Source of the DNA: Chloroflexota bacterium
GTDB lineage: Bacteria > Chloroflexota > Anaerolineae > B4-G1
NCBI GenBank assembly: GCA_034189605.1
Contig: JAXHUO010000001.1
Location: forward strand, 63,606 to 127,605
Length of the DNA: 64,000 nucleotides
Direction: 5' to 3'
Shown here: positions 4,841 through 61,605 of the stretch, one piece after another
How the letters are laid out: the number at the start of each line of letters is the position of its first letter
How positions within the stretch are numbered: the stretch's first letter is position 1
Made by a program: the position numbers and the translations under genes
The notes under the pieces: generated by a model
Told to the model about the DNA's origin: nothing
The model's database searches: none
Seen by the model: the letters and a program-made list of their open reading frames with translations, nothing else

Positions 4841-4864
4841 GTCTTCCTCCTGTTGGTGTGATAT

Positions 4865-4897
4865 AAAAAAAGACCTTTGGACGGGTGTCCAAAGGTC
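4865..4897 (-). terminator. intrinsic terminator acting as a leader attenuator upstream of pyrB
   Basis: The minus strand reads GACCTTTGGAC-ACCC-GTCCAAAGGTC followed by TTTTTTT: a perfect 11-bp stem, a 4-nt loop and 7 U. It ends about 25 nt upstream of the pyrB ATG. Confidence 0.75.
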
Positions 4898-5030
4898 GGG
4901 GAAAACGGTGTGAGCGGGGATGAGTGCGCTCTCCCCGTGTGTGCCATGGCTGCAAACTGACTGTGGGCCGTTCTCCAGACATCGGGCAGGAGTATACCGC
5001 GAATGAGGAAAAGTGTCAAGCCAAGAAATT

Positions 5031-5180
5031 TGGTGATTACACAAGTTCACTGATACCTCAGACCTCCAAGGTTTTTGGTAAGTGATGTCTCAAAGCACCG
5101 CGTGTCGAGGGCACAATGCGGGCTGTTTTATTGCAGGGAGTGAAACCTCGGAGTTCTTTCGGATATGTGGGTAATCACCA
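5031..5180 (+). mobile_element. MITE-like 150-bp element, copy A
   Basis: Perfect 10-bp terminal inverted repeats TGGTGATTAC / GTAATCACCA, plus subterminal inverted repeats (AGACCTCCAAGGTTT / AAACCTCGGAGTTCT). A second copy, about 90 percent identical by eye, lies inverted at 61646-61797. Confidence 0.7.
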
Positions 5181-5219
5181 GAAGAAGCCTGCTTGCTTTG
5201 CTGCGGTATCTTGAGTAGA

Positions 5220-9241: not shown

Positions 9242-9351
9242 AGCGTCATCCTCCCACTTTCATTCACAATTGTACTACTGGATTCTAGACGATTTTGAGC
9301 AAAGAGCAAATAGTGTCCTGCCCTGGACGCGTTGCGCTTGCCATCGGGTCA

Positions 9352-9380
9352 TTGCGGGAGTTGCATCCCAGTGGTATAAT
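9352..9380 (+). promoter_or_regulatory. sigma-70-like promoter TTGCGG-17-TATAAT
   Basis: -35 at 9352-9357 and -10 at 9375-9380. The GTG start of the next gene lies only 8 nt after the -10, implying a leaderless or near-leaderless mRNA if both calls are right. Confidence 0.4.
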
Positions 9381-9388
9381 CCTCTCTC

Positions 9389-10381: not shown

Positions 10382-10385
10382 AATA

Positions 10386-11465: not shown

Positions 11466-11539
11466 CAAGGTGACAGGGGTAGAATTTCGAGTTCCCTTGT
11501 CTCCCGCCCACATCATAAATCTTGTAAAGGTGTGTTCTA

Positions 11540-12697: not shown

Positions 12698-12798
12698 CAG
12701 GGGGGCGGGGGGACGAGGACACCGGGGCCGACCCGATGCCGGAGATGCTCAAGCCGGTCTCCTCGACGTGCGGCGCTTCTTCGAGTGGGAGGTTCACG

Positions 12799-27334: not shown

Positions 27335-27389
27335 TGGGTGATCCATCAGCACGGTTGACCGGTTACGATGATCCATCGGTCAGATAGGG

Positions 27390-27735
27390 TATGAAGCATT
27401 TCCGACCGGACATAAAGTGTCCGGTCTACGTAGCAGCGCCCGATGAATCGGGCTTGGGAACGCGGCGACTTTATCGCCGCGTGGTTCCGGTGCAGGGCAT
27501 GGAGGGTTCGATCAGATCGGTATTTCCGACCGGACATAAAGTGTCCGGTCTACGTGGCAGCGCCCGATGAATCGGGCTTGGGAACGCGGCGACTTTATCG
27601 CCACGCGGTTCCGGTGCAGGGCATGGAGGGTTCGATCAGATCGGTATTTCCGACCGGACATAAAGTGTCCGGTCTACGTAGCAGCGCCCGATGAATCGGG
27701 CTTGGGAACGCGGTGGCTTTCGCCGCGTGGCCAGT
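27390..27735 (+). repeat. three tandem 124-bp REP-like units (each three hairpins)
   Basis: The unit start CCGGACATAAAGTGTCCGG recurs at 27406, 27530 and 27654 (period 124). Each unit also has GCCCGAtgaaTCGGGC and GCGGCGActttaTCGCCGCG hairpins. Confidence 0.9.
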
Positions 27736-27759
27736 TGAAACATAAAGGAGCATAGGGTG

Positions 27760-28290
27760 ATGCCTTATTGGCAACTGTTCTATCATCTGGTCTGGTCAAC
27801 CAAGAATCGCCAACCTCTGCTGACCCCCTTGGTCGAGAAGCACATATACGGTTATCTGACCGGTAAGGCCGTTGGGCTCAAGGGTGTTGTCTACGCCATT
27901 GGTGGCACCATAGATCACGTTCATATGGTCGTGGCTATCCCTCCTGCCATTTCAGTGTCCAAGTTTGTTGGCCATGTTAAGGGCGTTGCCTCGACCAGAT
28001 TCAACAAGTCTGGCGTCAGTGACGTACGCTTTGAGTGGCAAGACGAATATGGCGCTTTCTCTTTCGACGCCAAGCGTTTGCCCAACTACATCGCCTACGT
28101 CAAGCGTCAAAAAGAACATCACGCGGCAGGTGCGACCATCCCCATCTTGGAGCGTATGACCTCGGAGAATGTGGGACCGCGTTTGGTGCGGGAGGACGCA
28201 TCGCTTTACGTGACAGAGATGGACACCTGGCGAGCAGGGTTGATAAAGTCATACCCTGTTACAGAAGAGGGCTTTGGTCAAGAATGTTGA
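27760..28290 (+). mobile_element. REP-associated tyrosine transposase (RAYT, IS200/IS605 Y1 HUH family)
   Basis: YHLVWSTKNRQP, HUH motif DHVHMVVAIPP and catalytic-Tyr region NYIAYVKRQKEHH. AAAGGAG RBS lies 9 nt before ATG 27760. It is flanked by inverted REP-like units. Confidence 0.85.
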
Positions 28291-28319
28291 GATTGCCTAT
28301 CCAGCGTGTCATTGGCGGC

Positions 28320-28625
28320 GTATCAAGTCCGATTTATCGGACGTTGCTCCGTAGCCGGGCGACTTTATCGCCCGGCGGTTCCGGCCAGCACGGCTCATCG
28401 CCCGGCGGTTCCGGCCAGCGCGGCTCATCGCCCGGCGGTTCCGGCCAGCACGGCTCATCGCCCGGCGGTCTTGGCCAGCATGGCTCATCGCCCGGCGGTT
28501 CCAGCCAGCACGGCTCATCGCCCGGCGGTTCCAGCCAGCACGGCTCATCGCCCGGCGGTTCCAGCCAGCGCGGTTCATCGCCCGGCGGTTCCGGCCAGCA
28601 CGGCTCATCGCCCGGCGACCCAGGT
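28320..28625. repeat. inverted REP-like unit followed by about nine 30-bp tandem repeats
   Basis: TCCGAtttaTCGGA - CGTTGCTCCGTAG - CCGGGCGActttaTCGCCCGG, then GGCTCATCGCCCGGCGGTTCC(G/A)GCCAGC(A/G)C repeated with a 30-bp period to about 28620. Confidence 0.9.
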
Positions 28626-28708: not shown

Positions 28709-29758
28709 ATGATGAAAACCTACAAACTGACCATCCGCCCCCTCACCTCATTCCGCACGCCACTCCAATCTGATACCATCTTCGGCCACTTGATGTGGGC
28801 GCTGCGCTACACCGAGGGGGAGGATACACTGGTGCAATTTCTGGCCCGCTACCGCGACGGCGATCCGCCGCTGCTCGTCTCGGCCGGCTTCCCGGAAGGT
28901 ACCCTCCCTGTGCCGGTGCTTGGGCCTGAACCGAAAGATCCAAAAGAGAGAGAGCGCAACCCGGCCAACGAGGTCGTGGGGGCCATGTTGCACAAGGCAT
29001 TGGAGGATGGTCGCTACCTGCCGCTCCCGCAATGGCACCAGTTGGCCCAGAATGTGTCGGCACGAACCTTGAAGGGGTTGCTCAGTGATGCCCGGACGAG
29101 ACTGCGAGAACTGAAGAAGGAGGAGCAGGAGCACCTCGTCACCCGTACTGCTGTGGACCGCATCACCGGCAGTGCGCGTAAAGGGCGGCTCTTTGTCGCC
29201 GAGGAGACCTTTTACGGCCCTGGCCGCAAATTCGAGATTTGGCACAAACTGGACGAGAGCGACGACAAGTTGCTCGAACGGCTGGCCCGGTGGTGGCGCT
29301 GGATCCAACGCAACGGCTTTGGACGCGGCAAGTCCACTGGCCACGGCGCGTTCCGCATCGTGGGCCAGGGGCTGGTCGAGGCGGGCGCGGAACTGCCCCA
29401 GGTGGCGAACCCTAACGGATTTGTCACCCTCTCTGCCTGGGTGCCCCGCTCCGGCGACTCTACCAACCCGGGCGACCCCACCGGCGTCACCTACCGCACC
29501 CGCGTCAAGCGCGGCAAACTGGCTGAGGCCTTGGCGCTGTCCAGTCCGTGGAAAAAGCCGCTCCTGATGCTGGAGCCGGGTGCTGTGGCTCGCTTATCCA
29601 AAAAAGATGGAGGGTTACGTGGGTGGTATGGTGGCCTGGTCGCGGGGGTGCACTGGCCAACCCCCGATGTACCAGATGGTGAAAGGGATATTATGCAGGA
29701 CATCGTGCAGTACGGCTATGCCTTCCCGCTGCCGGTGCACATTGAGGAGGGGGCGTGA
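28709..29758 (+). CDS. csm4: Csm4 (Cas5-family RAMP)
   Basis: YKLTIRPLTSFRTPLQSDTIFGHLMWAL N-terminus and GFGRGKSTGHGAF G-rich loop are typical of Csm4. Confidence 0.85.
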   Translation: MMKTYKLTIRPLTSFRTPLQSDTIFGHLMWALRYTEGEDTLVQFLARYRDGDPPLLVSAGFPEGTLPVPVLGPEPKDPKERERNPANEVVGAMLHKALEDGRYLPLPQWHQLAQNVSARTLKGLLSDARTRLRELKKEEQEHLVTRTAVDRITGSARKGRLFVAEETFYGPGRKFEIWHKLDESDDKLLERLARWWRWIQRNGFGRGKSTGHGAFRIVGQGLVEAGAELPQVANPNGFVTLSAWVPRSGDSTNPGDPTGVTYRTRVKRGKLAEALALSSPWKKPLLMLEPGAVARLSKKDGGLRGWYGGLVAGVHWPTPDVPDGERDIMQDIVQYGYAFPLPVHIEEGA

Positions 29759-31086
29759 TGGCCGAGTACTGTTTTCAACTGACCCCGCTCACCCCCATCC
29801 ACGTCGGCACGGGCGAGAGCCTGGAGCCCTTTGAATACGTCATCGCCGGTGACATGCTCTATTGCTTCACCCTCGACGACTTCCTGCTGGCGCTAGACCG
29901 CGACGATCAGGCTCTCTTCGTCCAGGTCGTCGAGCGCAGCGTCCCCGCCACGCGTCACTTTGTCGCCGAGCACGTGGGCGTGGCTGTGAGCGTGGCCCGC
30001 TTCACCGCTACCGTCTCCCCCGCCGCCCGCGCTCTCTACGACGGGCGCATGGAGGGCGGCGTGGCCCACCCTGAGGTCTTTGCCTGCATCCGCACCGGCG
30101 ACCTTCCCTACGTCCCCGGCTCCTCTCTCAAGGGCGCGCTCCGCACCGCGCTGCTCTACCACGCGATGGACAAGGACAACCCCACCCGCGACGCCCGCCG
30201 CTTGGAGCAGGCCGTTTTTGGCTTCCGCACCGTCCAGCAGGACCCCTTCCGCGCCTTTAAAGTGGGCGACGGCAACCCGCTGCAGACCCTCACCCGCGTG
30301 CGGGCGGTGGCCGTCAACACCCGCCGGGCCGGGCGCTGGTCCGAGGATGTGGCCGTGTTGGTGGAGTCGATTCCGGGAACGTTGTCGGATAGCGTGGAGG
30401 AGGCTTCCCAGCACCCCGTTACCTTTGACGCAGATTTCTACCATTACCACGAGCGCGCTTTTCGCCTCAGCCCGAGCGTGGTGCTGGCCGCCTGCCGCGA
30501 CTTCTACGGCACACATCTGGCTGCCGAACGGGACTATGCCCGTGACCTCGCACCGACCGCGGCCGCCTACGATACGCTGGCCGCCCGCGCCGAGAGCCTG
30601 CCCGACCACGCTTGCCTGGTGCGGCTGGCCTGGGGCAGCGGGCGCGATGCCACCACCGTGGCCTACGGCCTGCGGGATGGACGTAGCCCCGCGTCCCGCC
30701 GCCTCACCGCCGACGGCTTCCCGCTGGGCTGGGCTGAACTGGCGGTATTCGACGCCGACGGGCAGCCGGTTGGAGTGGGAGAAACGCCGGTTGCCGTAGG
30801 CGCGCCGCCGAAGCGACAGCCCCTGGACACACGGCCCCGCAGCCTGCACGACCTGCGGGAGGGGATGGTGCTGGAGGGAACCGTCAAGCGCACGGTCAAC
30901 TACGGCGCGTTCGTGGACATCGGCGTGGGACGGGACGGATTGATCCACGTCTCCAAACTGGCAGATGGTTTTGTGGAGCGGGTGGAGGCGATCGTGCGAT
31001 CCGGGGATCGAGTGCGCGTCCAGATCCTGGACGTGGATATAAAACGTCGCCGCATCGGCCTGAAACTGGTGGAGGCCTTGCATTAA
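29758..31086 (+). CDS. csm5: Csm5 (Cas7-like RAMP) fused to a C-terminal S1 RNA-binding domain
   Basis: N-terminal FQLTPLTPIHVGTGE and GDLPYVPGSSLKGALRTALLYH (Csm5 signatures). From about 30850 the sequence reads LREGMVLEGTVKRTVNYGAFVDIGVGRDGLIHVSKLADGFVE...GDRVRVQILDVDIKRRRIGLKL, a canonical S1/OB fold of the type found at the Tex C-terminus. Confidence 0.8.
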   Translation: MAEYCFQLTPLTPIHVGTGESLEPFEYVIAGDMLYCFTLDDFLLALDRDDQALFVQVVERSVPATRHFVAEHVGVAVSVARFTATVSPAARALYDGRMEGGVAHPEVFACIRTGDLPYVPGSSLKGALRTALLYHAMDKDNPTRDARRLEQAVFGFRTVQQDPFRAFKVGDGNPLQTLTRVRAVAVNTRRAGRWSEDVAVLVESIPGTLSDSVEEASQHPVTFDADFYHYHERAFRLSPSVVLAACRDFYGTHLAAERDYARDLAPTAAAYDTLAARAESLPDHACLVRLAWGSGRDATTVAYGLRDGRSPASRRLTADGFPLGWAELAVFDADGQPVGVGETPVAVGAPPKRQPLDTRPRSLHDLREGMVLEGTVKRTVNYGAFVDIGVGRDGLIHVSKLADGFVERVEAIVRSGDRVRVQILDVDIKRRRIGLKLVEALH

Positions 31087-32415: not shown

Positions 32416-33650
32416 GTGGAAATGACCTTCCCGATGAGTAGGGGATTGCTACGTAGCCGTCTTGGCCGTAGTCGGGGTCCCCGTAGCACATTGAACACAC
32501 AGTGGAAATGACCTTCCCGATGAGTAGGGGATTGCTACTTGTGCAACGACAGCACTGTCTCAATGCGGTCGGATTGAAGTTGTGGAAATGACCTTCCCGA
32601 TGAGTAGGGGATTGCTACAGTGCCACCCGGAACATCCGGGTCCTCGAATCCAATGGCTGCTACCGGTGGAAATGACCTTCCCGATGAGTAGGGGATTGCT
32701 ACTCCGTCGCCGGTGGTTATGACCGCGGTGTTATCGCGGGGGCCGCAGGTGGAAATGACCTTCCCGATGAGTAGGGGATTGCTACACCAGAGATGCTAAA
32801 ACGGCCCAGTACCCCCACTGCACGTTGTCGGCCGTGGAAATGACCTTCCCGATGAGTAGGGGATTGCTACTGATATACATGCCAATCAAGTTGACGTAGC
32901 CCGTCAATGGTGGAAATGACCTTCCCGATGAGTAGGGGATTGCTACCCATTTTTCACCTCCAAAAATTTTTGGTGGTGGCCCTCAGGGTGGAAATGACCT
33001 TCCCGATGAGTAGGGGATTGCTACGAAGTACCCCATCCGCCCGTGCATTTCGGCGAGCGCAGTGGAAATGACCTTCCCGATGAGTAGGGGATTGCTACCT
33101 GATCCGGTCATCAAAGTCATTGGTGGGAGGCGTAAACTCGTGGAAATGACCTTCCCGATGAGTAGGGGATTGCTACAGCAGGCTCGCCCAGGTGTTCGAT
33201 GGCAGAAGCCATCGTGGAAATGACCTTCCCGATGAGTAGGGGATTGCTACATTGAATTGGACACTCGTTGTTTGCGCACTTCCCACGCTTGCGTGGAAAT
33301 GACCTTCCCGATGAGTAGGGGATTGCTACTGCATCACGCAGTTGACCACCTCAAACTCTGTCCACTCCTCGAAGGTGGAAATGACCTTCCCGATGAGTAG
33401 GGGATTGCTACCAGTTGGGTTCTACAACCTCAGAAAACTCCTGAGTGTAAAAGTGGAAATGACCTTCCCGATGAGTAGGGGATTGCTACCACAGTTGCGG
33501 CGGCTGTGGCCTGGAGAAGGTTAATTAGCAGTGGAAATGACCTTCCCGATGAGTAAGGGATTGCTACGTTCACGGTGACGTGGCCCAGCGGTAAGACTTT
33601 TTTTGAAAAAAAAGTGGAAATGACCTTCCCGATGAGTAGGGGATTGCTAA
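32416..33650 (+). CRISPR. CRISPR array, 16 repeats of 37 bp, 15 spacers of 37-49 bp
   Basis: Repeat GTGGAAATGACCTTCCCGATGAGTAGGGGATTGCTAC starts at 32416, 32502, 32582, 32666, 32749, 32834, 32910, 32988, 33062, 33140, 33214, 33293, 33375, 33453, 33531 and 33614. The last two repeats are mutated (G to A at 33556, terminal C to A at 33650), so the leader is on the cas6 side. The 3' octamer ATTGCTAC fits a Cas6-generated 8-nt crRNA tag. Confidence 0.97.
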
Positions 33651-33840: not shown

Positions 33841-34098
33841 CCTGGCGACTTTATCGCCAGGCGGTCTACGGCCGGCGCGGGTGGCGCCTCCTCCTCGCCA
33901 ATACGCTCGCCGGCCGGTCTACGGCCAGCGCGGGTGGTGCATCCCCCTCGCCAATACGCTCGCCAGCCAGCCCCGCCGGGGTCAAGTGCCCCGGCTACGC
34001 AGTCACCCCCCCGTAAACGGGGTTCCTGAGCCCGATTTATCGGGCGGGGGCTTTGTAGCCTGGCGACTTTATCGCCAGGCGGTCTACTTCCTCGCCAA
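33841..34098. repeat. REP-like hairpin cluster
   Basis: CCTGGCGACTTTATCGCCAGGCGGTCTAC at 33841 and 34059. Also CCGGGGtcaaGTGCCCCGG, CCCCGtaaaCGGGG, GCCCGAtttaTCGGGC, and a duplicated CTCGCCAATACGCTCGCC. Confidence 0.85.
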
Positions 34099-34106: not shown

Positions 34107-34145
34107 GTGGAAATGATCCTCCCCGATGAGTATGGTGATTGCTAC
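34107..34145 (+). repeat. orphan degenerate CRISPR repeat
   Basis: GTGGAAATGATCCTCCCCGATGAGTATGGTGATTGCTAC matches the array repeat at both ends, with internal substitutions and a 2-nt insertion. It lies about 460 bp past the last array repeat. Confidence 0.7.
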
Positions 34146-34402
34146 ATCCGCTGTTTTCGTGTACAATCGGGTTGCTCATTGAGTGGACTTGTCGGTTCGG
34201 AGATCCTTTGGAGGCGGATTCGCACCGATTTTACTGTGCCAGGAGGTAACTACTCGGGCATACAGCACAACAACGCCGCATTTGTCATTGCGAGGAGCGT
34301 AGCGACGAAGCAATCTCCTATGATGCTACTTGGGGATTGCTTCGGGCAAAAAAACGCCCTCGCAATGACATAGGCTGAGTAGTTACGCCAGGAGTTTGTG
34401 AG

Positions 34403-36511
34403 ATGAAAATGGATGCCACTGAAAGGTCCTTGCTGGAAACTCATTCCATCCCGGCAATCGCCCGGCGCGAGTCGGCAGAGGAGACAGGCCAGGGATTGGT
34501 GGAATATGCGCTTATCCTGGTCCTGGTTGCGGTTGTCGTCGTGGTAGTTTTGACGTCTGTAGCGCCGCGTGTCTCTGAACTCTTCCAGGCAGCGATAACA
34601 GCCATCAGTGATGCCCCTTCCTACCTGCAGATCGGTTTGATTGTGGCCTTGCTCATCCCTCTGGTTGTTTGGTTGGTTCGCCTGGCCCCGCAACTCCCCA
34701 AGGTGCTTGGGACCGACGTTCGCCAACTCGAATTGACCGCCAGGGATTACCGGCGCGTCGAGTCGGAGATCACGGTTGCTCTTCTGGAAACCGGCCGGGC
34801 CAGGCGAAAGGACGTTGGCTTGAGCGCGGGCCTGTGGGACCTTTCGGTTCAGAGATACGTGGAGCAGCATAGAGAGGCGCGGATTCATTACGACGATCGC
34901 CGGCGCGCGATCGTCGCCGCCAACGCGGATGCGCTTGGCTCCTTGGGCCGATTGTGGCCTCGCTTGGAACTGTCTCCCCCTCAGTCTGAGGTGGAGCGTA
35001 TAGTTATTGAGGCCCTCGGTCTGCTCGCTCGGGCCCTGTCGGGGATTATAGTCGCTGTCCCTCAGGATATCCTCCAGGATAGGGGCCGGCTATACGTTTT
35101 GGACCTGGCCCCGTGGGACTCGCCACTGCCCTCCCAGTTGCCGGTACTGGTCTGGCTGGCCGCCGCGGTCCCGGGGATGGGAGAGATCGAGCAACTCAGC
35201 CGCCGGTTGCTTTCCCAATTTGGAGCGGTCAGGCGCGTTGCCGTCTTGATTGACCTGGCGGGCGATGACCCGGCCCGGCGCACGTCCATGCCCGAGTTGC
35301 TCGAAAAACTGCGGCAGGTCTTTGCCTACGACTTTGTCCCGCTGGGACAGGAGGAAATCGCTCGGATACTGATTGCCAGAAAACCCCGCGCTGCCCTGGC
35401 CCACCTGGTGCTCCCGCACGTCAACCTGATCTCCATTTCCCCGTTCGTTCTGACCGGCCCGGCCCCGGATACGATGTTTTTTGGCCGTGAGTTAGAGATG
35501 CGCAAGATCGCCGAGCGCATCGCCTCCAATTCTTATGTTCTGATCGCCGGCCGCCGTTTTGGCAAATCATCGGTTCTCCTGCGCCTGCACCGGGTCCGTC
35601 TGCCCGCTGCTGGCTTTCGCACTATCTACCACGATTGCTCCACCACCCCCACCGCCCAGGCCCTTCTCTCAGCCACGATTCGTGACTGGAGGCCAGAGCC
35701 CCCCTCGGATTCCCCTCTGACCTTTGCGGATCTGCTGCGCTCTCCGCCCGACGATAGCCCCCTTGTCCTACTCCTGGACGAGGCGGACAAACTTGTCCCC
35801 GCTGACCGTGCGGACGGCTGGCGACTGTTTAACATGTTACGAGCGCTGTCCAACTCTGGCCGGGCCCAGATCGTCCTCAGCGGCGAGCGCACGCTGCGCG
35901 ACGCGCTGCGTGACCCCGGCAGCCCGCTGTTCAATTTCGCCAACGAGGTACTCCTCGGTCCTCTCGACCGCCGCGCCGCGGAGGAACTGGTCACCCGGCC
36001 GCTGCAGCAACTGGAGATTGATCTGGTGGATGAGGCGGCGATTGTGCGCCGCATCTATGATTTTACCTCCGGTCACCCCAACGTCGTCCAACGGCTGTGT
36101 CACCGCTTGATCGAACGGCTCAACGAGCGAGGCACGCGCCGCGTCACGTTGGACGATGCGAACGCGGTTATCAAAGACCCCGGCTTTCTGCGCAACGACT
36201 TTCTCAGTACCTATTGGGAGGCCGCTACCTCCCTGGAGAAAATTATCTCCCTGTTGATGGCCGACGACGAGGATTTGCATACCTTGCGCGCTGTGCGGCG
36301 GGCCTTGCTGGAACGCTGTGACCTGCGGCCCAGGGCCCACGAGGTGGACGCCGCCTTGCAACGGCTGGTGGACCTGCGCTTTCTCCTGAGGCGTGCTCCC
36401 GCCGGCTACGAGTTTGCCGTGGAAGCCTTCCCTCTGGTGGCGGCCGGGACGATGACCCTGGACGATATGCTGGAGATCCTTGCTGAAGAGTACCAGGAGC
36501 AGAGAGAATGA
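34403..36511 (+). CDS. membrane-anchored P-loop ATPase (Arch_ATPase/ATPase_2-like) with a Flp-pilin-like N-terminal segment
   Basis: aa 29-50 GQGLVEYALILVLVAVVVVVVL (Flp-type G/xxxEY hydrophobic motif), a second TM at aa 74-95, and an unassigned alpha/beta region at aa ~225-345. Then FFGRELEMRKI...LIAGRRFGKSSVL (Walker A) and LVLLLDEADKL (Walker B), with a winged-helix-like tail. The stop overlaps the next start (ATGA). Confidence 0.65.
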   Translation: MKMDATERSLLETHSIPAIARRESAEETGQGLVEYALILVLVAVVVVVVLTSVAPRVSELFQAAITAISDAPSYLQIGLIVALLIPLVVWLVRLAPQLPKVLGTDVRQLELTARDYRRVESEITVALLETGRARRKDVGLSAGLWDLSVQRYVEQHREARIHYDDRRRAIVAANADALGSLGRLWPRLELSPPQSEVERIVIEALGLLARALSGIIVAVPQDILQDRGRLYVLDLAPWDSPLPSQLPVLVWLAAAVPGMGEIEQLSRRLLSQFGAVRRVAVLIDLAGDDPARRTSMPELLEKLRQVFAYDFVPLGQEEIARILIARKPRAALAHLVLPHVNLISISPFVLTGPAPDTMFFGRELEMRKIAERIASNSYVLIAGRRFGKSSVLLRLHRVRLPAAGFRTIYHDCSTTPTAQALLSATIRDWRPEPPSDSPLTFADLLRSPPDDSPLVLLLDEADKLVPADRADGWRLFNMLRALSNSGRAQIVLSGERTLRDALRDPGSPLFNFANEVLLGPLDRRAAEELVTRPLQQLEIDLVDEAAIVRRIYDFTSGHPNVVQRLCHRLIERLNERGTRRVTLDDANAVIKDPGFLRNDFLSTYWEAATSLEKIISLLMADDEDLHTLRAVRRALLERCDLRPRAHEVDAALQRLVDLRFLLRRAPAGYEFAVEAFPLVAAGTMTLDDMLEILAEEYQEQRE

Positions 36512-38367
36512 GCCTTGTCCCGTTCAGGACCGGCGGCCCATTGACCGATGAACACGCTGCCATTTACGTCGAACGCAGAGCCGACCGCGACGCGCTGACC
36601 CATTTGCACGCGATGGACTACCTGCTGGTCATCGAGCCGCGCCAGCAGGGCAAGACCAGCCTGATCAACCACCTGATGCGCCACCCGGCCTTGTCCGGTC
36701 TGTCCTTTGTTTACGTGGACGTGGCTACGCCCGACCGTTCGACCGAGGCGGCCTGGTATCGGACGTTCTGCCCCCGTTTCTTGCGCCAACTGCGCGACTT
36801 TATCCCGCGTGACCAGTGGCCTGCCATCCCTCAGAACAGCACCGGCTGGCGCGAGTTCCTGGGCGACGTGGCCGCGCTTGCCGCTGCCGCCCACCGGCGG
36901 GTGGTCGTTGCCCTGGACGAGATCGGCGCCGTGACGTTCCCCGGCGCGACCGGGTTCTTTAGCGTCCTGCGCGACGTGTACAACTCGCGCCAGGCTGAGA
37001 CCGAGTTTAAGCAGTTGACCTTTCTGCTGACCGGGGCCTTCCATCCGCGCGATCTGATCACGGACAACAGGATCTCGCCCTTCAACGTCGCCCAGCGCGT
37101 GCGCCTGGCCGACTTTACCCTGGCGCAGGTGCACCAATTGGTTGGCGCAGGGGATTGGGCAGGTGAGCAGGCCAGGAGGTTGGCCGAACGGATCCATTAT
37201 TGGACAGACGGCCAGCCCTATCTGACCCAATTGCTCTGTTCCTACCTGGATGGCGGCGCGAGCCCTCTGGACGTGGATGGCGGCGTCGAGCGGTTGCGCC
37301 GCGAGGACGAAAATCACCTGCCCCCGCTGTTGGCCCGGCTCGACCGTGACGAAAGGCTGCGGGAGTACGTTGAACGCATCCTGGCGGGTGAGCGCATCAA
37401 GTTTTACCCGCGCGAAAACCGGCGACAGGCACAATTAGAGTTGCTGGGTCTTGTCAAGGCTGATGTGGAAGGGTATTGCATCGTCCGCAACCGTCTCTAC
37501 GTACAGACACTGGGTGCACTCGATGAGACGTCTGCCGGAATATCTGCCCCGAGCAGGGAAGGCGGGGTGGCGCCAGCTCATAGAGTCCGCTCTTCAGCTG
37601 TTGTCCCCCAGGAACTGAGCGGGGAGATGAGAAAGGGCAACGTCGTTCTTTTTGTCGGTGCGGGTCTCTCCATCGGCGCTGGGCTGCCCGGTTGGGGCGC
37701 ACTCGTGCGTCCACTGGCGGAAGACATCGGCTACGAGGGGCACGACTTGCTCAAAGCGGCCCAGTATTATGAGAATCGCAGGGGACGGCATGCCCTGATC
37801 TCCTACCTGCGGGACCGGTTGGATACGACCGGCATTGAGCCGACCGGGAACCACGAGCTCCTCGTTCGGCTACCGGTCAATATTGTGTTCACCACTAACT
37901 TTGATGATTTGCTGGAGCGGGCCTACCGCAAGGCCGGGCGACCGGTCAACCTGGTGGTGGGGGCGGCGGAACTGCCATTCTGGGACGAGGCGCGGGTCAA
38001 TCTGGTCAAATTACACGGCACCCACGACCGCCCGGCCACGTTCACCATCACGGAGCGGGACTATAACACCATCTACCGTAACAACCCCCTCGTCGTGCAG
38101 CAACTCAACGCCTTGCTGGCGATCAAGACCTTTCTGTTCGTTGGCTACAGCGTGAGCGATCCCGACTTTAACCAGATCTATGACCAACTGAGCGTTGACC
38201 TGGGCTGGCACCGCCGCCGCCCGTATCTGGTCACCTTTGGTGGGGATGAACTCGTGGTGGAGAACCTGAAGCGGCGTGGTTACCACCTGATCAGCCTGTC
38301 GGGTGAGGGGGAGCGCAACGCCCGGCTGGCAGAATGGCTACAGGTCTTGCTGGAGAGCAGCCGGTGA
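36508..38367 (+). CDS. AAA-like (AAA_35-type) NTPase fused to a C-terminal SIR2_2 domain
   Basis: N-terminus: YVERRADRDAL...LLVIEPRQQGKTSL (Walker A), VVVALDEIG (Walker B). From about 37630: VLFVGAGLSIGAGLPGW, FTTNFD, LVKLHGT, FVGYSVSDPDF, the four hallmark blocks of SIR2_2 (PF13289-type) NADase domains. Confidence 0.8.
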   Translation: MSLVPFRTGGPLTDEHAAIYVERRADRDALTHLHAMDYLLVIEPRQQGKTSLINHLMRHPALSGLSFVYVDVATPDRSTEAAWYRTFCPRFLRQLRDFIPRDQWPAIPQNSTGWREFLGDVAALAAAAHRRVVVALDEIGAVTFPGATGFFSVLRDVYNSRQAETEFKQLTFLLTGAFHPRDLITDNRISPFNVAQRVRLADFTLAQVHQLVGAGDWAGEQARRLAERIHYWTDGQPYLTQLLCSYLDGGASPLDVDGGVERLRREDENHLPPLLARLDRDERLREYVERILAGERIKFYPRENRRQAQLELLGLVKADVEGYCIVRNRLYVQTLGALDETSAGISAPSREGGVAPAHRVRSSAVVPQELSGEMRKGNVVLFVGAGLSIGAGLPGWGALVRPLAEDIGYEGHDLLKAAQYYENRRGRHALISYLRDRLDTTGIEPTGNHELLVRLPVNIVFTTNFDDLLERAYRKAGRPVNLVVGAAELPFWDEARVNLVKLHGTHDRPATFTITERDYNTIYRNNPLVVQQLNALLAIKTFLFVGYSVSDPDFNQIYDQLSVDLGWHRRRPYLVTFGGDELVVENLKRRGYHLISLSGEGERNARLAEWLQVLLESSR

Positions 38368-38370: not shown

Positions 38371-38690
38371 CGCGGCGACGAGATCGCCGCGCTACAGAGT
38401 TGCACCCCGTAAACGGGAAAGACCCGTCGCCGAAGCGGCCAAGCCCGATTTATCGGGCGCTGCTTCGTAGCCGGGGCACTTTATGCCCCGGCGATGCCGA
38501 CTGGCAATCCCCCCGGGCACTTTACCCCGGCGATGCCGACTGGCAATCCCCCCGGGCACTTTACCCCGGCGATGCCGGCAGGCGATCACCCCGGGCACTT
38601 TACCCCGGCGATGCCGACTGGCAATCCCCCCGTGCACTTTACCCCGGCGATGCCGACTGGTGATCACCCCGGGCACTTTGCCCCGGCTTG
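38371..38690. repeat. REP-like hairpin cluster plus about five 39-bp tandem repeats
   Basis: GCGGCGAcgagaTCGCCGC directly after the stop. CCCCGtaaaCGGG. The inverted double-hairpin unit GCCCGAtttaTCGGGC-GCTGCTTCGTAG-CCGGGGCActttaTGCCCCGG. Then CGATGCCGACTGGCAATCCCCCCGGGCACTTTACCCCGG repeated about five times. Confidence 0.9.
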
Positions 38691-54314: not shown

Positions 54315-55571
54315 CTATGCGGCTTTGAGCGGTTTCTGCAATTCCTCAACCAGACGGTCAAAGTTGTACTCGCCGAGGTACGGATCGGTAAGATTCAACG
54401 TATTCAGCATCCTTAACCCTGATCTCACCCGCTGATTAGGCCGTCCGTCATCACCGACCAGGTCTTTGTCAATGATCACTGGTAGCACGCGGGCCTGGCG
54501 TTCCTCAACCCCCAACGTCTGGGCTATCGTGTTCTGAAAGTGCGCCCAGTTGTCGGCCAGGTATGCCTTCGACAACACGACCACAGTGCGCCTGGATCGT
54601 TCTATGGCGCGCTCTATGCCCACGACCAGCGCCACGCCGGGGTCCTCGACAGCGCCAGAGACGGCAACGCGCAGGTCCGCATCTTTCAGGCGCTTTGCCA
54701 GTGTCCTCCACACCCATCCCGCGTCCGGCTCCCTGTGCACATAACTGACATAGGCATCGTAGCGGAAGCCTTCCTCATCTTTGGGCACGATTCCCTTCTG
54801 ACCGCCCAGGTAGAGGGCGACGGGAAAGTTCTCCTCCAGTTCGGCCTTGAAAATGGGGTGCTGGTTGGATTGATCGCCGGTGACGCGGGGCTGGAGGTAT
54901 TCGAAAAGGTCAAAGATGTGGATGAGACCGTCGTCGCTGGGGATGCCGCCCCGCAGGCCGGCCAGCAGGTGTTGGGTGAAGAGGCTGTTTGGAGCGCCGG
55001 GTAGCACCCAGGAGTACTCGCTGCTGCGGGACGAGGCCAGGATGACCCGTCCCCGCCCTTCCTTGAGCGCGTCGTAGTAACTGTCCGAGAAGCCCGCTTT
55101 GATGGCTGGCGCGGTCGTCTCCTTGGGCTGGCCGATGCCGCCGGAGTGGCAGCAGTCGAAGACGACCACGACCTTGCGGGCCGGGATACCGCGCAAGGCC
55201 TCGGTGAACTCGTTCCCTGAGATGGCGGTCTTGTTCACGCGGTTGGGAACTACATCTACGGGCAGCAGGTACTCGCCAGCGTAGGCGCCAGACTCCACCC
55301 GCCCGCCATGGCTGGAGATGTAGAGGAAGGCGGTAGATTCGGGATTCGTAGATTCGGCAATGGTTTTGAGGGCGGCGCGGATGCGGCCGGCGGTGGCTTG
55401 CTTATCGAGCAGCAGCTGCACGTTGTCCGGCGGGTAGCCGCAGTGCTGCGGGGCAACCAGCAGGTCGCGGATGTCCTGGGCATCCTTGAGCACGGTTGGC
55501 GGAAGTTTATTGATCTGCTGGTAGTTGGCGATGCCGATCACGAGGGCGTGGGCGTTTTCCATTGCAGGCAT
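54315..55571 (-). CDS. caspase-like (peptidase C14) domain fused to a C-terminal TIR domain
   Basis: HALVIGIANY, catalytic dyad contexts YISSHGG (His88) and VVVFDCCHSGG (Cys140/141). From aa ~270, YDAYVSYVHREPDAGWV...ERAIERSRRTVVVLSKAYLADNWAHFQ (TIR). AAGGAG RBS. Confidence 0.85.
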   Translation of the reverse strand: MPAMENAHALVIGIANYQQINKLPPTVLKDAQDIRDLLVAPQHCGYPPDNVQLLLDKQATAGRIRAALKTIAESTNPESTAFLYISSHGGRVESGAYAGEYLLPVDVVPNRVNKTAISGNEFTEALRGIPARKVVVVFDCCHSGGIGQPKETTAPAIKAGFSDSYYDALKEGRGRVILASSRSSEYSWVLPGAPNSLFTQHLLAGLRGGIPSDDGLIHIFDLFEYLQPRVTGDQSNQHPIFKAELEENFPVALYLGGQKGIVPKDEEGFRYDAYVSYVHREPDAGWVWRTLAKRLKDADLRVAVSGAVEDPGVALVVGIERAIERSRRTVVVLSKAYLADNWAHFQNTIAQTLGVEERQARVLPVIIDKDLVGDDGRPNQRVRSGLRMLNTLNLTDPYLGEYNFDRLVEELQKPLKAA

Positions 55572-55633
55572 GAGGCTGTCTCCTTTTCTCCTCGTTTACG
55601 TAGGGCATGCTGTCATATTGCAGAACTACTGCA

Positions 55634-56551
55634 TCAGCGTGGGCAACCATACCAGGATCGCAGAAAACGATGGAACCGACCACTCGTCCAACCCGAGCAG
55701 CGCGCTTGCCAACCACGGCCTGGTGGGCCAAGACCACCTTCAGTCAAGACCAACGAAATACGATACTCCCCAGCCTGAGCGCCAACCAGAAAAAGCGCAA
55801 AGGCCACCGGATGGCTGGGGTGACACAGCAGGGCCTCCTGGACGCTGCGGAAAAAGCCGGTCTTGGTGACGCTAAATGGGTAGCGTAGGCCCTCCTCGCT
55901 CCCACTCTCCAGCCAGAGAGTGGCCAAAGCACCGAGATCACTCTTCATTCCCAGCACCGATACCGGCTGGAGGTCCGGGCAACCATCTTGTGGGAAGATC
56001 GTCTCCAGGGATGTCACGTCTGTAATGGCTAGGGAGGTCAGGATACTCTCATCGCCGACGGCCACGAGTGCGTACTGCTTGGTTCCAATCTCCAGTCCCA
56101 AGAGCACCGGCGGCGGGACTGCATCTGGCAGGCTGTCGGCCAAGTCATCGGTGGTTTCAATGGGGTTGACGGGTGCTAGCGGGTAAACCACCCTCCGGCC
56201 GATGTAGCCCCCGCCTTCCAGCAGGTTCCAGACTTCTTCCTCTTCAGGATCGTACTCGTAGGTCGCTTCTATCACCACGCGGGATTGGGTCGCAGGCGCA
56301 GGCACGCATATCACCTGCCCAGCATAGATCACACTGGGATTCCAGATGCGCCCCCGGTTGAGCCGCATCATCTCCGGGACCGTTGTGTTGTAACGCCGGG
56401 CGAGGCTGTATAACGTGTCTCCACGCCGTACGGTGTAGGTGGCAGGACAGCCGCCCTGTGCACGAGCCGGGCCGGGGAAGGCCGCTAGTGCCCCCACTAG
56501 CGACAATGTTATCACCAGGCGGAGTGCTATTGCCGTCAAACGGGACCTCAT
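55634..56551 (-). CDS. secreted LysM-domain protein
   Basis: Signal peptide MRSRLTAIALRLVITLSLVGALAAFPGPARAQ. LysM YTVRRGDTLYSLARRYNTTVPEMMRLN...IYAGQVICVP. The remainder is unassigned. Start at ATG 56551 is preceded by GGAGG. Confidence 0.75.
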   Translation of the reverse strand: MRSRLTAIALRLVITLSLVGALAAFPGPARAQGGCPATYTVRRGDTLYSLARRYNTTVPEMMRLNRGRIWNPSVIYAGQVICVPAPATQSRVVIEATYEYDPEEEEVWNLLEGGGYIGRRVVYPLAPVNPIETTDDLADSLPDAVPPPVLLGLEIGTKQYALVAVGDESILTSLAITDVTSLETIFPQDGCPDLQPVSVLGMKSDLGALATLWLESGSEEGLRYPFSVTKTGFFRSVQEALLCHPSHPVAFALFLVGAQAGEYRISLVLTEGGLGPPGRGWQARCSGWTSGRFHRFLRSWYGCPR

Positions 56552-56591
56552 GTGACACCTCCTCATCTTGGATACCTGACAACTTGCAGGT

Positions 56592-59500
56592 CTACCCCAC
56601 CTTGCTCCACGTATTCCCGTCGTGGAACCACAACTCTCCGGTCGCCGTGCCTACCAGCAGTTTGCCGTCGGCAGGGAGCACTGCGGTAATGATAGGTGCT
56701 GTGGTTCCGCCGCCAATCGGCTCGTGGGTCCAAATCCAGTTTTGCCCTTGAGGCGTTCCTTTGAACAACCCTGCTGTTGTGCCCGCATAGAGGTCTGTCC
56801 CCCGCGTTTTCAATGCCAGGACTGCTCCTTCTACCTTCTGGCCAACATCTACCCGAGACCATCCCTCTGTCAAGGGCGCTCCCAGGCGCCGCCTCCAGAT
56901 GCCGTGAGCGAGGGTGCCCGCGCACACAAAACCCCCGTTCACCGCCACCGCTGTGCTCAATGGTTTGATCCCATCACCGCCGATGCCAGGCGTTTCGATC
57001 CATCGGTTGAAACCAGCAACGTTGATACCGCGGTAACGAGGGGTCATCATATTCGCGGCATATACATAACGATCCCCGTTCGTAACACCGGCTGCCAGGT
57101 CCAGCGCCACGCCCGCACTGCCTGCGAGCGGCTGTTCGGGGCCTGATGAGGCGACTGGCAATCCACCTGGAATGTTAGAAGGTGTCTCGGCAGAAAGCGT
57201 TTCGACCTCACCGCCCCATTGTTGCCAATTCCCGGTAGCAGGATCCCCAAGCCAAACCTTCCCCGCCGTTCCTACGTAGAGTTTACCTGCATCCATCACC
57301 ATAGACAACGGAGCCTCTTCCTCTGGCCAAGCACCCAGAGCCGACCAGGTGTTTGTATTGATTGGCCGCTGGTAAACGCCGCCTTCCGTGGCCGCGTAGA
57401 CCGTGTTACGTGCCGAGTCATAGACCAGAGCCACTACCCCCTCGTTCTCGCTCAAATTCCAGCCGTTAGTGCTTTCTGTCAGGCTGCCGGTGCCCGCTTG
57501 ATACAAGAAGCGTCTTACGCCGGCGTCGGTCCCGACGAGAAAGTTTTTCTGTCCGCCTGTATCTTGGAAGTGTACTAGGGCCTGGACGCCACGCTCGGCC
57601 AGGATGCTACGCTGAGCGAAGGTGTTGATTATTTGGTCAACAGTCCCTTCGGGCAGGTTGCTTTGGCGGGCTGCGGCGATCAGTCCCTCCGCTGCAGTCT
57701 CAAAGTTCGCTACCCAGCCGTGCACACATTCGAAAGCCTTCAACGCCAGCCGGTCGGCCGGGTCATACCCCAAGATCTCCCGAACATCCCACAGCGCCCT
57801 GGCCCACACCATGCTGACATTGTAGACCTCCGGGCCATTGGGGTCAGTCTGGTTGTGCGGGTACAGGTTGGGGGCCGGCAGAATGTCCTCGCCAGCGATT
57901 GCATCTGACCGGCTGAGTGCCCAGCGAGTCCCCCAATTGCTGTAGGCTGCCCGCGCCCAGCGCTCCTGCCCATCCGGATCCCCTTGTGCGCCCAAAGAGC
58001 GGGCGAAATAGTTCGCGTACCCTTCCAAGAGGGCCCGCCCAAAGGGCACGTTTTCATCCTGCAAGTGCTCAAAAGGTTTGGGGTTTAACTTCCACATGAG
58101 ACCGTGGGTGACTTCGTGATAGATCACTTCTGGATCCCAACTGGGGTTATCAACCGTCTTGTTTTCCCAGTCAGCGCTTAATTGCAAGCCCGCGCCGGTC
58201 TGAAAACGAATGAGTTTGGCCCCTAGCGTGGCGGGGTTAAAGCACATGCGAAAATCCGGCCCGGCTTCTACGCGCGCGGACAGGAAGGGTGTTTCCGTGC
58301 TGCCGAGGTAGGGAAGCAAAGCATCGGCGCCGCAGGTAGAGGCAAAGTGCTGGAGCAGCCTGTAGGCATGGAAAGCGATATTGGCAATTTCACGAGGGTA
58401 TTGCGTCACGTCTGTTGATCGCAGTTGCATGAGATGGCTAACTGTGGTGGTCAAATCCTGCAGATCCTGAAATGCGTTGCTGACCTTCTCGGTGTCGCTT
58501 CGCGCATCGCCCGAGGAATGATAGATATTCACACCGTAGAGGATTGAATTCTCCGGGTGTCCCAACACCTGCCCGCTCACAGCATCCACAAATATCCGCC
58601 AGGCCTGGTCGCCGGAGGGAGATAGGCACATCACCTGATAGGCTACGTAGTATTGACCGGCGAAAGGCAAGAGCCACGGCAGTTCTTCATCCTCGCTACC
58701 GGCGTGGGAGACCACGCGCACATCCCACGTCAGATCACCTCCCTGTGCAAACTCGAGCCAGTGCCCCCGCACCTCACCCAACAATTCAGCCTCACAGTGT
58801 ACATCCATTGCGAGCCACTCTTGCAGATCCGGGATGTCGAGGCCCTGCTGCTCACTGTACTCTGCGAGAGCAAGCAAGAATTCTCTTAGTACGCGGTCGC
58901 ACATCGCCTGTGTCGCCAATTCTGGGGCGGTCTCTGACGCGCGCGCTGCAACCAAATCCTCCAACCAACGCCAGTAAAAGCCCACTGTGTCGGAGGCGTC
59001 GAGGTAGGCCGCCAAAACCTGCTCGGCCATCAGTTTGGCCTGCTCTGCGCTTAACTGCCTGGAAAAGGTGGTGTCGGGCGGAGGGCCGGGGAAATAGGAG
59101 TTGGTCACAGAAACTTTTGGGCTCCCCACCTTCAGGTGAACAACCACGTCCCCACCAAAGACCGGCCACTCGGCACCATCAGCAGACTGATACCACTGTT
59201 GGTACCGCACGTGGGCTGTGGGCATCTCCTGGACACGGACCTTCTGAGAGTAGTGTTGGGTCCCAGTGGTACTCGTTTCAAACTGTAGGCGACCTTTGGA
59301 CTTGGTTCCTCCATGCACCTGGATGCTGTCATACCGCAGTGCCTGCTCATCCAGACGTTTGCCAAACAAGGCTTTCCGTTGCAGGTCTCCGAATAACCAA
59401 TGGGAAGCCATCTCTTTGTACGCTTCGGCATCATCGCGGGGCAAATCGGCCTCCCGATCTGACAGAAAACCGGTGAGAAAAGCGGGTAAGCCGGTGTGCC

Positions 59501-59894
59501 GCGCCACCCGCACGCGCAAAGGGTACTCGGGCGCTGCGAGGTGCGCTCTGTGCTCTTCACGGTATGCCTGGAGCGCATCTCGTGAGGTCTTTACGGTGTC
59601 TGCATCCCGGAAGGCGGTCAGAAGACCGGAGATGGTGGGAGGCGGGGGCAGAAGCACCCCCACGCGTTCCTTCGCCAACTGCGCCTGGCCTTCCTGACGA
59701 TCTTGGGGTGCGCCCAACAACGCTTCCAGCAGGCGCAATAAGATGCTCAGCCAGGAGCGGAGCAACTGCCATAAGGCTAGCAGGCAGCCTTGCAGGGCTT
59801 TCAGGGCAGCCGGGCTTAGGGGTGGCTGGGACGGTGCGTACTCAGGCATTGCCGTTTGTTCCACAGCCAATTGTGGATCAGGTTCCCTCAACAT
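56592..59894 (-). CDS. 1100-aa thermolysin/fungalysin-like (M4/M36 gluzincin) metalloprotease domain fused to a C-terminal beta-propeller
   Basis: VIYHEVTHGLMW (HExxH) with downstream ALLEGYANYF (third-ligand Glu context). An N-terminal propeptide-like region. The C-terminal ~400 aa carry repeated W/G-rich blades (GVYQRPINTNTWSALG, GKVWLGDPATGNWQQWG, GLFKGTPQGQNWIWT, ELWFHDGNTWSKVG). Strong AAGGAGG RBS. Confidence 0.7.
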   Translation of the reverse strand: MLREPDPQLAVEQTAMPEYAPSQPPLSPAALKALQGCLLALWQLLRSWLSILLRLLEALLGAPQDRQEGQAQLAKERVGVLLPPPPTISGLLTAFRDADTVKTSRDALQAYREEHRAHLAAPEYPLRVRVARHTGLPAFLTGFLSDREADLPRDDAEAYKEMASHWLFGDLQRKALFGKRLDEQALRYDSIQVHGGTKSKGRLQFETSTTGTQHYSQKVRVQEMPTAHVRYQQWYQSADGAEWPVFGGDVVVHLKVGSPKVSVTNSYFPGPPPDTTFSRQLSAEQAKLMAEQVLAAYLDASDTVGFYWRWLEDLVAARASETAPELATQAMCDRVLREFLLALAEYSEQQGLDIPDLQEWLAMDVHCEAELLGEVRGHWLEFAQGGDLTWDVRVVSHAGSEDEELPWLLPFAGQYYVAYQVMCLSPSGDQAWRIFVDAVSGQVLGHPENSILYGVNIYHSSGDARSDTEKVSNAFQDLQDLTTTVSHLMQLRSTDVTQYPREIANIAFHAYRLLQHFASTCGADALLPYLGSTETPFLSARVEAGPDFRMCFNPATLGAKLIRFQTGAGLQLSADWENKTVDNPSWDPEVIYHEVTHGLMWKLNPKPFEHLQDENVPFGRALLEGYANYFARSLGAQGDPDGQERWARAAYSNWGTRWALSRSDAIAGEDILPAPNLYPHNQTDPNGPEVYNVSMVWARALWDVREILGYDPADRLALKAFECVHGWVANFETAAEGLIAAARQSNLPEGTVDQIINTFAQRSILAERGVQALVHFQDTGGQKNFLVGTDAGVRRFLYQAGTGSLTESTNGWNLSENEGVVALVYDSARNTVYAATEGGVYQRPINTNTWSALGAWPEEEAPLSMVMDAGKLYVGTAGKVWLGDPATGNWQQWGGEVETLSAETPSNIPGGLPVASSGPEQPLAGSAGVALDLAAGVTNGDRYVYAANMMTPRYRGINVAGFNRWIETPGIGGDGIKPLSTAVAVNGGFVCAGTLAHGIWRRRLGAPLTEGWSRVDVGQKVEGAVLALKTRGTDLYAGTTAGLFKGTPQGQNWIWTHEPIGGGTTAPIITAVLPADGKLLVGTATGELWFHDGNTWSKVG

Positions 59895-59926
59895 GGCAAG
59901 CCTCCTTTCGTGTATCCTTCAGCGGA

Positions 59927-61582: not shown

Positions 61583-61605
61583 GCGTGGGTTCCTCACGTG
61601 TTATC

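Follow-up and report, generated by a model that had tools for sequence, protein, structure and literature searches.

Analysis of a 64,000-nt stretch of a Chloroflexota genome (contig JAXHUO010000001.1, positions 63,606 to 127,605; referred to below as the window) revealed two overlapping genes for different nucleoside triphosphatases (NTPases), located immediately downstream of a type III CRISPR array. The upstream partner, gene 1 (34403-36511, plus strand), specifies a 702-amino acid (aa), putatively membrane-tethered nSTAND1-like NTPase of the STAND superfamily, and the downstream partner, gene 2 (36508-38367, plus strand), a 619-aa AAA_35 STAND NTPase with a C-terminal SIR2 domain. Pairs of this kind constitute a conserved same-strand unit, usually with a 4-nt overlap of the two genes, and their outer ends are exchangeable cassettes of the kinds that bacterial conflict systems use as effectors, adaptors and signalling domains. 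In our judgement the pair is probably a self-contained, two-gene STAND (NLR-like) conflict module that is independent of the adjoining type III CRISPR-Cas locus.

The coupled gene pair and its conservation

An earlier reading of the window from its letters alone (the sequence-only reading) had proposed two genes sharing an ATGA, and both open reading frames (ORFs), as well as the overlap at 36508-36511, were confirmed. The junction reads ...GAG AGA GAA TGA / ATG AGC..., and a GGAG is present approximately 8 nt 5′ of the gene 2 ATG; this arrangement is suggestive of translational coupling. Gene 1 was delimited from the ORF list, Pfam matches and a structural model, and gene 2 from its ORF, Pfam matches and homologues. 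Since both proteins have strong homologues, the two ORFs appear to be real genes rather than chance ORFs.

Hidden Markov models were built for the NTPase cores of both proteins and applied to a genome scan via gene 1 and a metagenome scan via gene 2. The genome scan yielded 18 loci, mostly from metagenome-assembled genomes (MAGs) of Chloroflexota, with additional ones from Blastocatellia and Thermoanaerobaculia, and an adjacent gene with an AAA_35 core was found on the same strand in 16 of the 17 informative loci. Among the 63 loci of the metagenome scan, 27 were informative and distinct close relatives, and a gene with an nSTAND1 core was located directly upstream in 24 of them (25 when one ORF-start artefact is counted). 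Automatic scoring recognized an nSTAND1 core followed by an AAA_35 core in 38 of 43 informative cases, 22 of these 38 pairs having the exact 4-nt overlap. Exact-protein look-ups of close orthologues added five unrelated neighbourhoods that share the pair arrangement, with the 4-nt overlap in L004, L005, L007 and L008, and with one gene between the partners in L001. The window pair has the core order, strand, overlap and variable outer ends of these modules. The gene 1 and gene 2 proteins are functionally coupled.

The closest orthologue on a long contig is that of L001, in which the interposed gene (12107-13546) encodes Schlafen/AlbA_2 and HATPase_c_4 domains, and a gene for an AbiEii toxin is located just upstream. 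Three metagenome contigs (L034, L040 and L043, the last at 1-15163) each carry two to four nSTAND1-core/AAA_35-core pairs in tandem, with different outer cassettes on each pair; such groups on single contigs are reminiscent of NLR gene clusters.

Two proteins, P0077 and P0114, contain both cores fused in the order of the operon. The cores themselves appear to be distant paralogues, as judged from a comparison of their two alignments with hhalign (94.9% probability, E=4.6e-8), in which aa 344-591 of the gene 1 protein correspond to aa 2-261 of the gene 2 protein, and the Walker A, Walker B and GxP motifs are in register. For more distant AAA_35 genes (L062-L083, e.g. L062 2451-5674) the upstream partner is a second AAA_35-like paralogue in place of an nSTAND1-like gene, in many cases likewise overlapping by 4 nt; pairing in tandem may be widespread within this NTPase clade.

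Domain architecture, exchangeable cassettes and known systems

The gene 1 protein matches the Pfam families AAA_22 (41 bits) and nSTAND1 (PF20703; aa 357-665; 40.2 bits against a cutoff of 27.1), the weak nSTAND1 score being consistent with a divergent subfamily. Its Walker A (GRRFGKSS, aa 383-390), Walker B (LLLDEAD, aa 456-462) and GxP (SGHPN, aa 556-560) motifs, together with two hydrophobic helices (aa ~28-60 and ~70-99), bear out the transmembrane (TM)-anchored P-loop ATPase of the sequence-only reading. In an AlphaFold2 model (pLDDT 82.7, pTM 0.72) a disordered leader (aa 1-30) is followed by a helical hairpin formed by the two hydrophobic helices (aa 28-94), a confidently folded region (aa 113-345), the NTPase (aa ~350-600) and C-terminal helical/winged-helix modules (aa 600-702). 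The part comprising the NTPase and the C-terminal modules (aa ~350-702; 35450-36508) was defined by invariant alignment columns, motifs and fold matches. Foldseek matches of the whole model were confined to the NTPase part, the best being the STAND-type archaeal ATPases SSO1545 (2fna) and PAB2304 (2qen), followed by ORC/Cdc6/RFC.

The first TM helix lies within a Flp/Fap type IVb pilin-like segment (aa ~27-70; 34481-34612), which gives a weak Pfam Flp_Fap match and carries a G/XXXXEY-type prepilin motif, GQGLVEYALILVL, invariant across six of six orthologues. When aa 1-135 were used as a query, almost only Flp/Fap type IVb pilins were returned (314 matches, nearly all of them short PF04964 Flp pilins), so the membrane anchor of gene 1, with its prepilin motif, is predicted to be derived from a Flp pilin. 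The second TM helix, YLQIGLIVALLIPLVVWLVRLAPQLP (aa ~72-99; 34616-34699), is evident from hydropathy and orthologue conservation, and corresponds to helix 73-94 of the model; it brings the chain back to the cytoplasm.

Between the anchor and the NTPase there is a constant region (aa 113-345; 34739-35437) composed of a winged helix-turn-helix (wHTH)-like H-E-H-H-E-E unit, helices and an alpha-beta-beta-beta-alpha-beta unit. The sequence-only reading had placed here an unassigned alpha/beta domain of about 120 aa, at aa 225-345; a folded region with no Pfam match does exist, but it spans aa 113-345. Modelled separately, aa 105-350 gave a confident structure (pLDDT 84.6, pTM 0.83) with no Foldseek match at E<=0.001 in PDB or BFVD. 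Its top match was HindIII (E=0.035), and the SAVED/CARF fold of Cap4 was reached only at E=0.44 with a TM-score of 0.21, so the comparison with CARF, SAVED and other nucleotide sensors, suggested for aa 225-345, produced nothing significant. A restriction-endonuclease-like alpha/beta fold, hinted at by weak matches to HindIII, Shedu nuclease, RPB5 and resolvases, was not assigned, because the alignment has no conserved acidic/Lys catalytic residues. A CARF/SAVED identity of aa 225-345 was likewise rejected: the segment belongs to the constant core of the family, and neither PDB nor BFVD contains a structure that it matches significantly.

The gene 2 protein matches AAA_35 (82.6 bits, aa 15-333) and SIR2_2 (93.3 bits, aa 459-580). 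Its constant NTPase core (aa 1-335; 36508-37512) contains Walker A (PRQQGKTS, aa 44), Walker B (ALDEIG, aa 135) and GxP (DGQPY, aa 234) motifs, and, on the evidence of their motifs, both NTPases of the pair are apparently catalytically competent. The four SIR2_2 blocks expected from the sequence-only reading are all present (GAGLS, aa 384; TTNFD, aa 462; KLHG, aa 501; GYSVSD, aa 546) within a ThsA-like SIR2 cassette (aa 366-617; 37603-38358). This cassette was aligned to the PDB structures of ThsA (6lhx/7uxt, ~1e-26), KomC and DSR2, with TTNFD opposite TTNYD and KLHG opposite KMHG of ThsA 6lhx. The predicted catalytic residues Asn464 (nt 37897-37899) and His503 (nt 38014-38016) are intact and correspond to N112 and H152 of ThsA; judged by its motifs, the SIR2 domain of gene 2 is predicted to be NADase-competent.

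At 71-81% identity (BLAST), the same SIR2 cassette recurs within quite different architectures. In six AAA_35-SIR2 homologues (P0124, P0126, P0127, P0133, P0123 and P0151) the catalytic Asn is replaced by Ala or Thr and/or the His by Tyr or Phe; these copies may be inactive or repurposed, and the window copy keeps both residues. The closest orthologue of gene 2, P0122, has an additional C-terminal caspase domain. Truncation of gene 2 was considered and rejected, because no caspase remnant is found downstream and the two-domain form is shared by P0123 and P0126.

In an exhaustive profile search (E<=1e-30) the gene 1 family amounted to 1,051 clusters (50% identity). The core occupies the extreme C-terminus in nearly all of the 150 top-ranking ones, and protein lengths range from 350 to 2,190 aa. 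The constant core (aa ~240-702, in some relatives from ~115-150) shows 50-70% identity (BLAST) among proteins with unrelated N-termini, which include protein kinase, TIR, FHA, receiver (REC), GAF, HAMP/PAS, caspase, CHAT, vWA and EAD7 cassettes. In the gene 2 family the constant core (aa 1-335) is located at the protein start, and the variable C-terminal cassettes are SIR2, caspase, Mrr, metallophosphatase, patatin, TIR, PNP, CHAT, receiver, EAD7/8 and bDLD1; TCAD9 is also found among the cassettes of paralogues of the pair. The window copy combines a membrane anchor on gene 1 with an intact ThsA-type SIR2 on gene 2. The family is concentrated in Chloroflexota MAGs (Anaerolineae and Chloroflexia). 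A search of viral contigs for relatives of gene 2 was negative and thus gave no hint of a phage-borne module.

Both proteins fall into the STAND superfamily by their Walker A, Walker B and GxP motifs, STAND-type fold matches and Pfam scores above the cutoffs for nSTAND1 and AAA_35. At the position of the C-terminal repeat sensor of STAND proteins, gene 1 has helical/winged-helix modules and gene 2 has SIR2. PADLOC (v2) gave no match for gene 1 and only SIR2-domain matches for gene 2; none of its models describes the pair, in keeping with the sequence-only reading, which had not recognized the arrangement. NCBIfam returned for the two proteins only sub-threshold Dsr and PEP-CTERM ATPase matches.

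Among systems with a SIR2 NADase, the closest by sequence is Thoeris: the PADLOC ThsA match (1e-45) and the conserved Asn and His link gene 2 to ThsA. However, the similarity is confined to the SIR2 half of ThsA (profile positions 11-222 of 478), the window pair has neither a SLOG domain nor an adjacent ThsB/TIR gene, and its regulation would be exerted via the NTPase, not via a signal of the glycocyclic ADP-ribose (gcADPR) type. SIR2-HerA is likewise a two-gene defence system composed of SIR2 and an ATPase, but HerA is a hexameric ATPase of the FtsK/HerA type and not a STAND NTPase. DSR1/DSR2 share the SIR2 NADase defence; these are sirtuins of about 1,200 aa, whereas the NCBIfam matches of gene 2 (Dsr2 65 bits and Dsr1 38 bits, against a cutoff of 1400) are not full-length and cover the SIR2 region only. 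Avs5 also combines a STAND NTPase with a SIR2 NADase, and filament assembly activates its NADase; NAD+ hydrolysis is thus driven by oligomerization and leads to abortive infection (PMC11897194). Unlike Avs5, the window pair lacks a repeat or sensor domain and has its SIR2 at the C-terminus (AAA_35, then SIR2); it also comprises two distinct NTPases whose genes constitute an obligate pair, and one of these NTPases is anchored in the membrane. No Avs model was among the PADLOC matches of either protein.

Kaur, Burroughs, Iyer and Aravind have catalogued the NTPases of the nSTAND1/MNS clades and their adaptor domains (PMC7159879, PMC8195603), and also predicted a two-gene nSTAND2 system with a STAND NTPase in each gene (eLife 2021, PMC8195603). 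The window family resembles these systems in its NTPase clades, in the EAD7/8, bDLD1, TCAD9, TIR, caspase, kinase and FHA domains, and in its phyletic bias towards multicellular bacteria; with nSTAND2 it shares the two-gene operon encoding a STAND NTPase in each gene. It differs from canonical nSTAND1 and nSTAND2 in being sensor-less and heterotypic (nSTAND1-like plus AAA_35). Canonical nSTAND1 proteins, as described in the table rows consulted in Kaur et al., end in a sensor (TM/beta-propeller, TPR or FGS) and have no MNS/AAA_35 gene downstream of them; of their architecture (effector/EAD, nSTAND1, optional TM, sensor) gene 1 has the NTPase domain, weakly matched, and not the C-terminal sensor. 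Among the terms searched in the text and supplements of Kaur et al., 'nSTAND1+SIR2' and 'MNS-STAND+SIR2' architectures were absent. A 2026 survey of 589 STAND clades makes no mention of two-gene or paired systems.

In the literature search, to which Leipe et al. 2004 was external, no description of an nSTAND1-like/AAA_35 pair was found. STAND and NLR-like systems as such are already known, and what appears new here is a heterotypic, sensor-less and translationally coupled NTPase pair with a pilin-derived anchor and a C-terminal SIR2. An 'Npun2340/2341 family', reportedly named in the 2004 work after two adjacent genes, would be an earlier, unconfirmed notice of tandem pairing.

Proposed mechanism and competing explanations

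For the conflict module we infer the following course of events. The two paralogous NTPases would be made in fixed proportion through translational coupling, each carrying one exchangeable cassette at its outer end, and the Flp-pilin-derived TM hairpin would place gene 1 at the inner membrane face. A trigger, sensed through gene 1 by either its N-terminal module or the constant wHTH/alpha-beta region, would release NTP-dependent co-oligomerization of both NTPases; this would juxtapose the SIR2 domains and switch on NAD+ hydrolysis, in the manner of the filaments of Avs5, with cell arrest or death (abortive infection or programmed cell death) as the predicted outcome. The character of a conflict system is seen in the cassettes of the paralogues, in the tandem pairs of some contigs and in the AbiEii or type III restriction-modification (R-M) system found in a few pair neighbourhoods.

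Several points weigh against this explanation. Defence, NADase activity and complex formation are predictions made from sequence. Neither protein has a TPR, WD40 or LRR repeat sensor typical of STAND receptors, and many N-terminal cassettes of gene 1 relatives (kinase, FHA, REC, GAF, HAMP/PAS) look like inputs of ordinary signal transduction. Judging from the residues aligned, several SIR2-bearing homologues are devoid of the catalytic Asn/His, and NADase output would accordingly not be a family-wide property. As for the fusion proteins, their sequences derive from metagenome assemblies and could have arisen through one wrong base at the overlap. Finally, neighbours of the pair elsewhere are mostly ordinary (signalling proteins and glycosyltransferases), and a general defence-island context is not supported. 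The families recurring among 117 neighbours were histidine-kinase ATPase, GAF, glycosyltransferases and TPR; PADLOC matches among these neighbours were sparse, with at most 2-3 members per model and no background rate for comparison.

In the main rival explanation, which we regard as a minority possibility, the same heteromeric machine would serve regulated cell death, kin recognition or development in filamentous multicellular bacteria and not phage defence, responding at the membrane to an endogenous trigger or one from a neighbouring cell. The concentration of the family in Chloroflexota MAGs, the EAD, bDLD and TCAD adaptor domains held in common with the conflict systems of 'multicellular bacteria' of Kaur et al., the many signalling domains among the N-terminal cassettes, the scarcity of defence islands around the loci and the lack of relatives on viral contigs would all suit such a role. 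On the other hand, the effectors (SIR2, TIR, caspase, patatin, Mrr and PNP) match those of proven anti-phage systems, some loci adjoin AbiEii or R-M genes, and the window copy itself resides in a CRISPR/toxin-antitoxin neighbourhood. The developmental or kin-related role and the defence role are not mutually exclusive.

A more specific form of the conflict-module explanation, which we put forward as an unlikely though attractive extension, is that the pair is a bacterial counterpart of the 'paired NLRs' of plants, i.e. an obligate hetero-oligomer of paralogous STAND NTPases with divided labour. Gene 1 would be the input subunit, its hairpin residing in the Tad/Flp pilin pool or being processed by prepilin peptidase, and would report envelope events such as phage entry via pili or membrane perturbation; gene 2 would be the executioner, whose SIR2 domain collapses the NAD+ pool. 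The likeness to plant sensor/helper pairs consists in two linked paralogous STAND/NLR genes, a presumed hetero-complex and the division of input and execution. It is a functional analogy; beyond the STAND fold there is no direct homology between the two. Plant NLR pairs are usually arranged head-to-head and have leucine-rich repeats (LRRs).

Gene 2 might instead be an autonomous Avs-like protein and gene 1 an unrelated membrane NTPase, i.e. two independent single-gene STAND systems lying side by side. Single-gene STAND defence proteins (Avs) are the rule, gene-2-type AAA_35 genes with no detectable partner were found in L031 and L059, and AAA_35 proteins at a greater distance either stand alone or have another paralogue as their partner. 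Order and strand are nevertheless conserved, the 4-nt overlap occurs in most pairs, across phyla and cassette combinations, the fusions follow the operon order, and the gene 1 core always ends at the C-terminus while the gene 2 core always starts at residue 1. Independence of the two genes is, in view of this, improbable.

The sequence-only reading had assigned the pair to the slot of a type III ancillary effector; in that scheme cyclic oligoadenylate (cOA) made by Cas10 would be sensed by a domain of gene 1 or gene 2, and SIR2 would deplete NAD+. The premises hold within the window: the pair is directly downstream of the array of a type III locus, Cas10 retains its GGDD motif and none of the large ORFs matched a CARF/SAVED family, and SIR2 effectors are known from other signalling-based defence systems. 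Elsewhere, however, homologous pairs are frequent at sites unconnected with CRISPR, the succession of nSTAND1 core and AAA_35 core being present at about 60 other distinct loci. Among the 89 other loci fetched (~60 distinct), many of them on short contigs, no homologue of the window's six Cas proteins, which were the only queries, and no CRISPR-like array (k-mer detector) was detected. Cas families are absent from the Pfam tables for L001-L009 and from the 25 most recurrent Pfam families of the 117 neighbours of the genome loci. The fetched loci thus show no recurrent association with type III cas genes, and since such pairs are the very finding named in advance as refuting the proposal, the CRISPR-ancillary explanation is unsupported. 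Neither protein has a Pfam CARF/SAVED match, and the high-confidence model of gene 1 aa 105-350 has no close likeness to Cap4 SAVED. The private sensor suspected at aa 225-345 is part of the constant core, common to CRISPR-unlinked paralogues, and therefore cannot be a sensor specific to the CRISPR-adjacent copy. A repetitive extragenic palindromic (REP) cluster, a decayed repeat, an inverted repeat resembling a miniature inverted-repeat transposable element (MITE) and a promoter-like site part the pair from the array. The ancillary-effector explanation is largely refuted and is, of those considered, a very remote prospect; the adjacency of the CRISPR array seems to be a chance feature of this genome rather than a functional link.

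Surroundings of the pair and implications

The type III (Csm) locus upstream of the pair encodes Cas10 (with HD and GGDD), Csm2, three RAMPs, one of them with an S1 fusion, and Cas6. The RAMP-S1 fusion (29755-31086) is a RAMP-family Csm subunit with a C-terminal S1 RNA-binding domain (Pfam RAMPs aa 9-179, S1 aa 368-436), an unusual architecture for a type III subunit. The CRISPR array (32416-33650) consists of 16 repeats of 37 nt. A decayed 17th copy, GTGGAAATGATCCTCCCCGATGAGTATGG..., is found at 34107-34143, approximately 450 bp past the last intact repeat, with a REP cluster between them; either the array formerly came as close as ~270 nt to gene 1, or its trailer end has been invaded by REPs.

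REP-like clusters bracketing the module had been noted from the sequence, and hairpins of one family were indeed found on both flanks. The upstream cluster (33841-34087) is situated between the array and gene 1, and a 39-nt x 5.4 tandem array belongs to the downstream one (38405-38687); exact matches to GCCCGATTTATCGGGC and CCCCGTAAACGGG are located at 34009-34045 and 38405-38458. Within the csm operon, between the Csm3-like RAMP gene and the next RAMP gene (27340-28620), there is a gene for an IS200-like Y1 transposase (27757-28290). It is preceded by three 124-nt tandem units with REP-like hairpins, GCCCGATGAATCGGGC, at 27438, 27562 and 27686, and followed by one hairpin at 28327 and a 30-nt x 8.4 tandem array (28367-28617). 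This locus looks like a REP-associated tyrosine transposase (RAYT) with its own REPs, and the same hairpin family flanks the STAND pair.

A promoter-like site, TTGCTA-17-TACAAT (34139-34167, plus strand), is located ~235 nt upstream of gene 1; as a consensus match only, it is weak evidence for an independent transcription unit of the pair. Directly 5′ of the gene 1 start there is a 27-nt inverted repeat, GTCATTGCGAGG ... CCTCGCAATGAC (34269-34384), by resemblance a MITE-like palindromic element, in the likely 5′ untranslated/promoter region of gene 1.

Downstream of the pair are a Phd/YefM antitoxin gene and then housekeeping genes. A second conflict-type cluster was distinguished on the minus strand (54315-61597). 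It contains genes for a caspase-TIR fusion (54315-55571), a LysM protein and a protein with TIR and Sortilin/Vps10-like domains (59927-61597), as well as a 1,100-aa ORF (56592-59894) with no Pfam match. The TIR genes nearest to the pair are ~16 kb off and on the opposite strand.

For the annotation of type III loci, these results mean that adjacency to a CARF-less locus is insufficient to call a gene a CRISPR ancillary effector. What remains after the CRISPR idea falls is a sizeable, uncharacterized and experimentally tractable family resembling paired NLRs. To our knowledge, bacterial STAND/Avs immunity has so far been characterized in the form of single-protein receptors. A conserved coupled STAND pair would offer a simple prokaryotic system in which to study heteromeric (sensor/helper-type) NLR signalling, and would show how inputs and death effectors are joined combinatorially. 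The derivation of the anchor from a Flp pilin points to a hitherto unexplored means by which an NLR-like machine could be held at the membrane. If the paired-NLR explanation is true, cassette swapping would make the pair a plug-and-play platform connecting arbitrary inputs to arbitrary death effectors.

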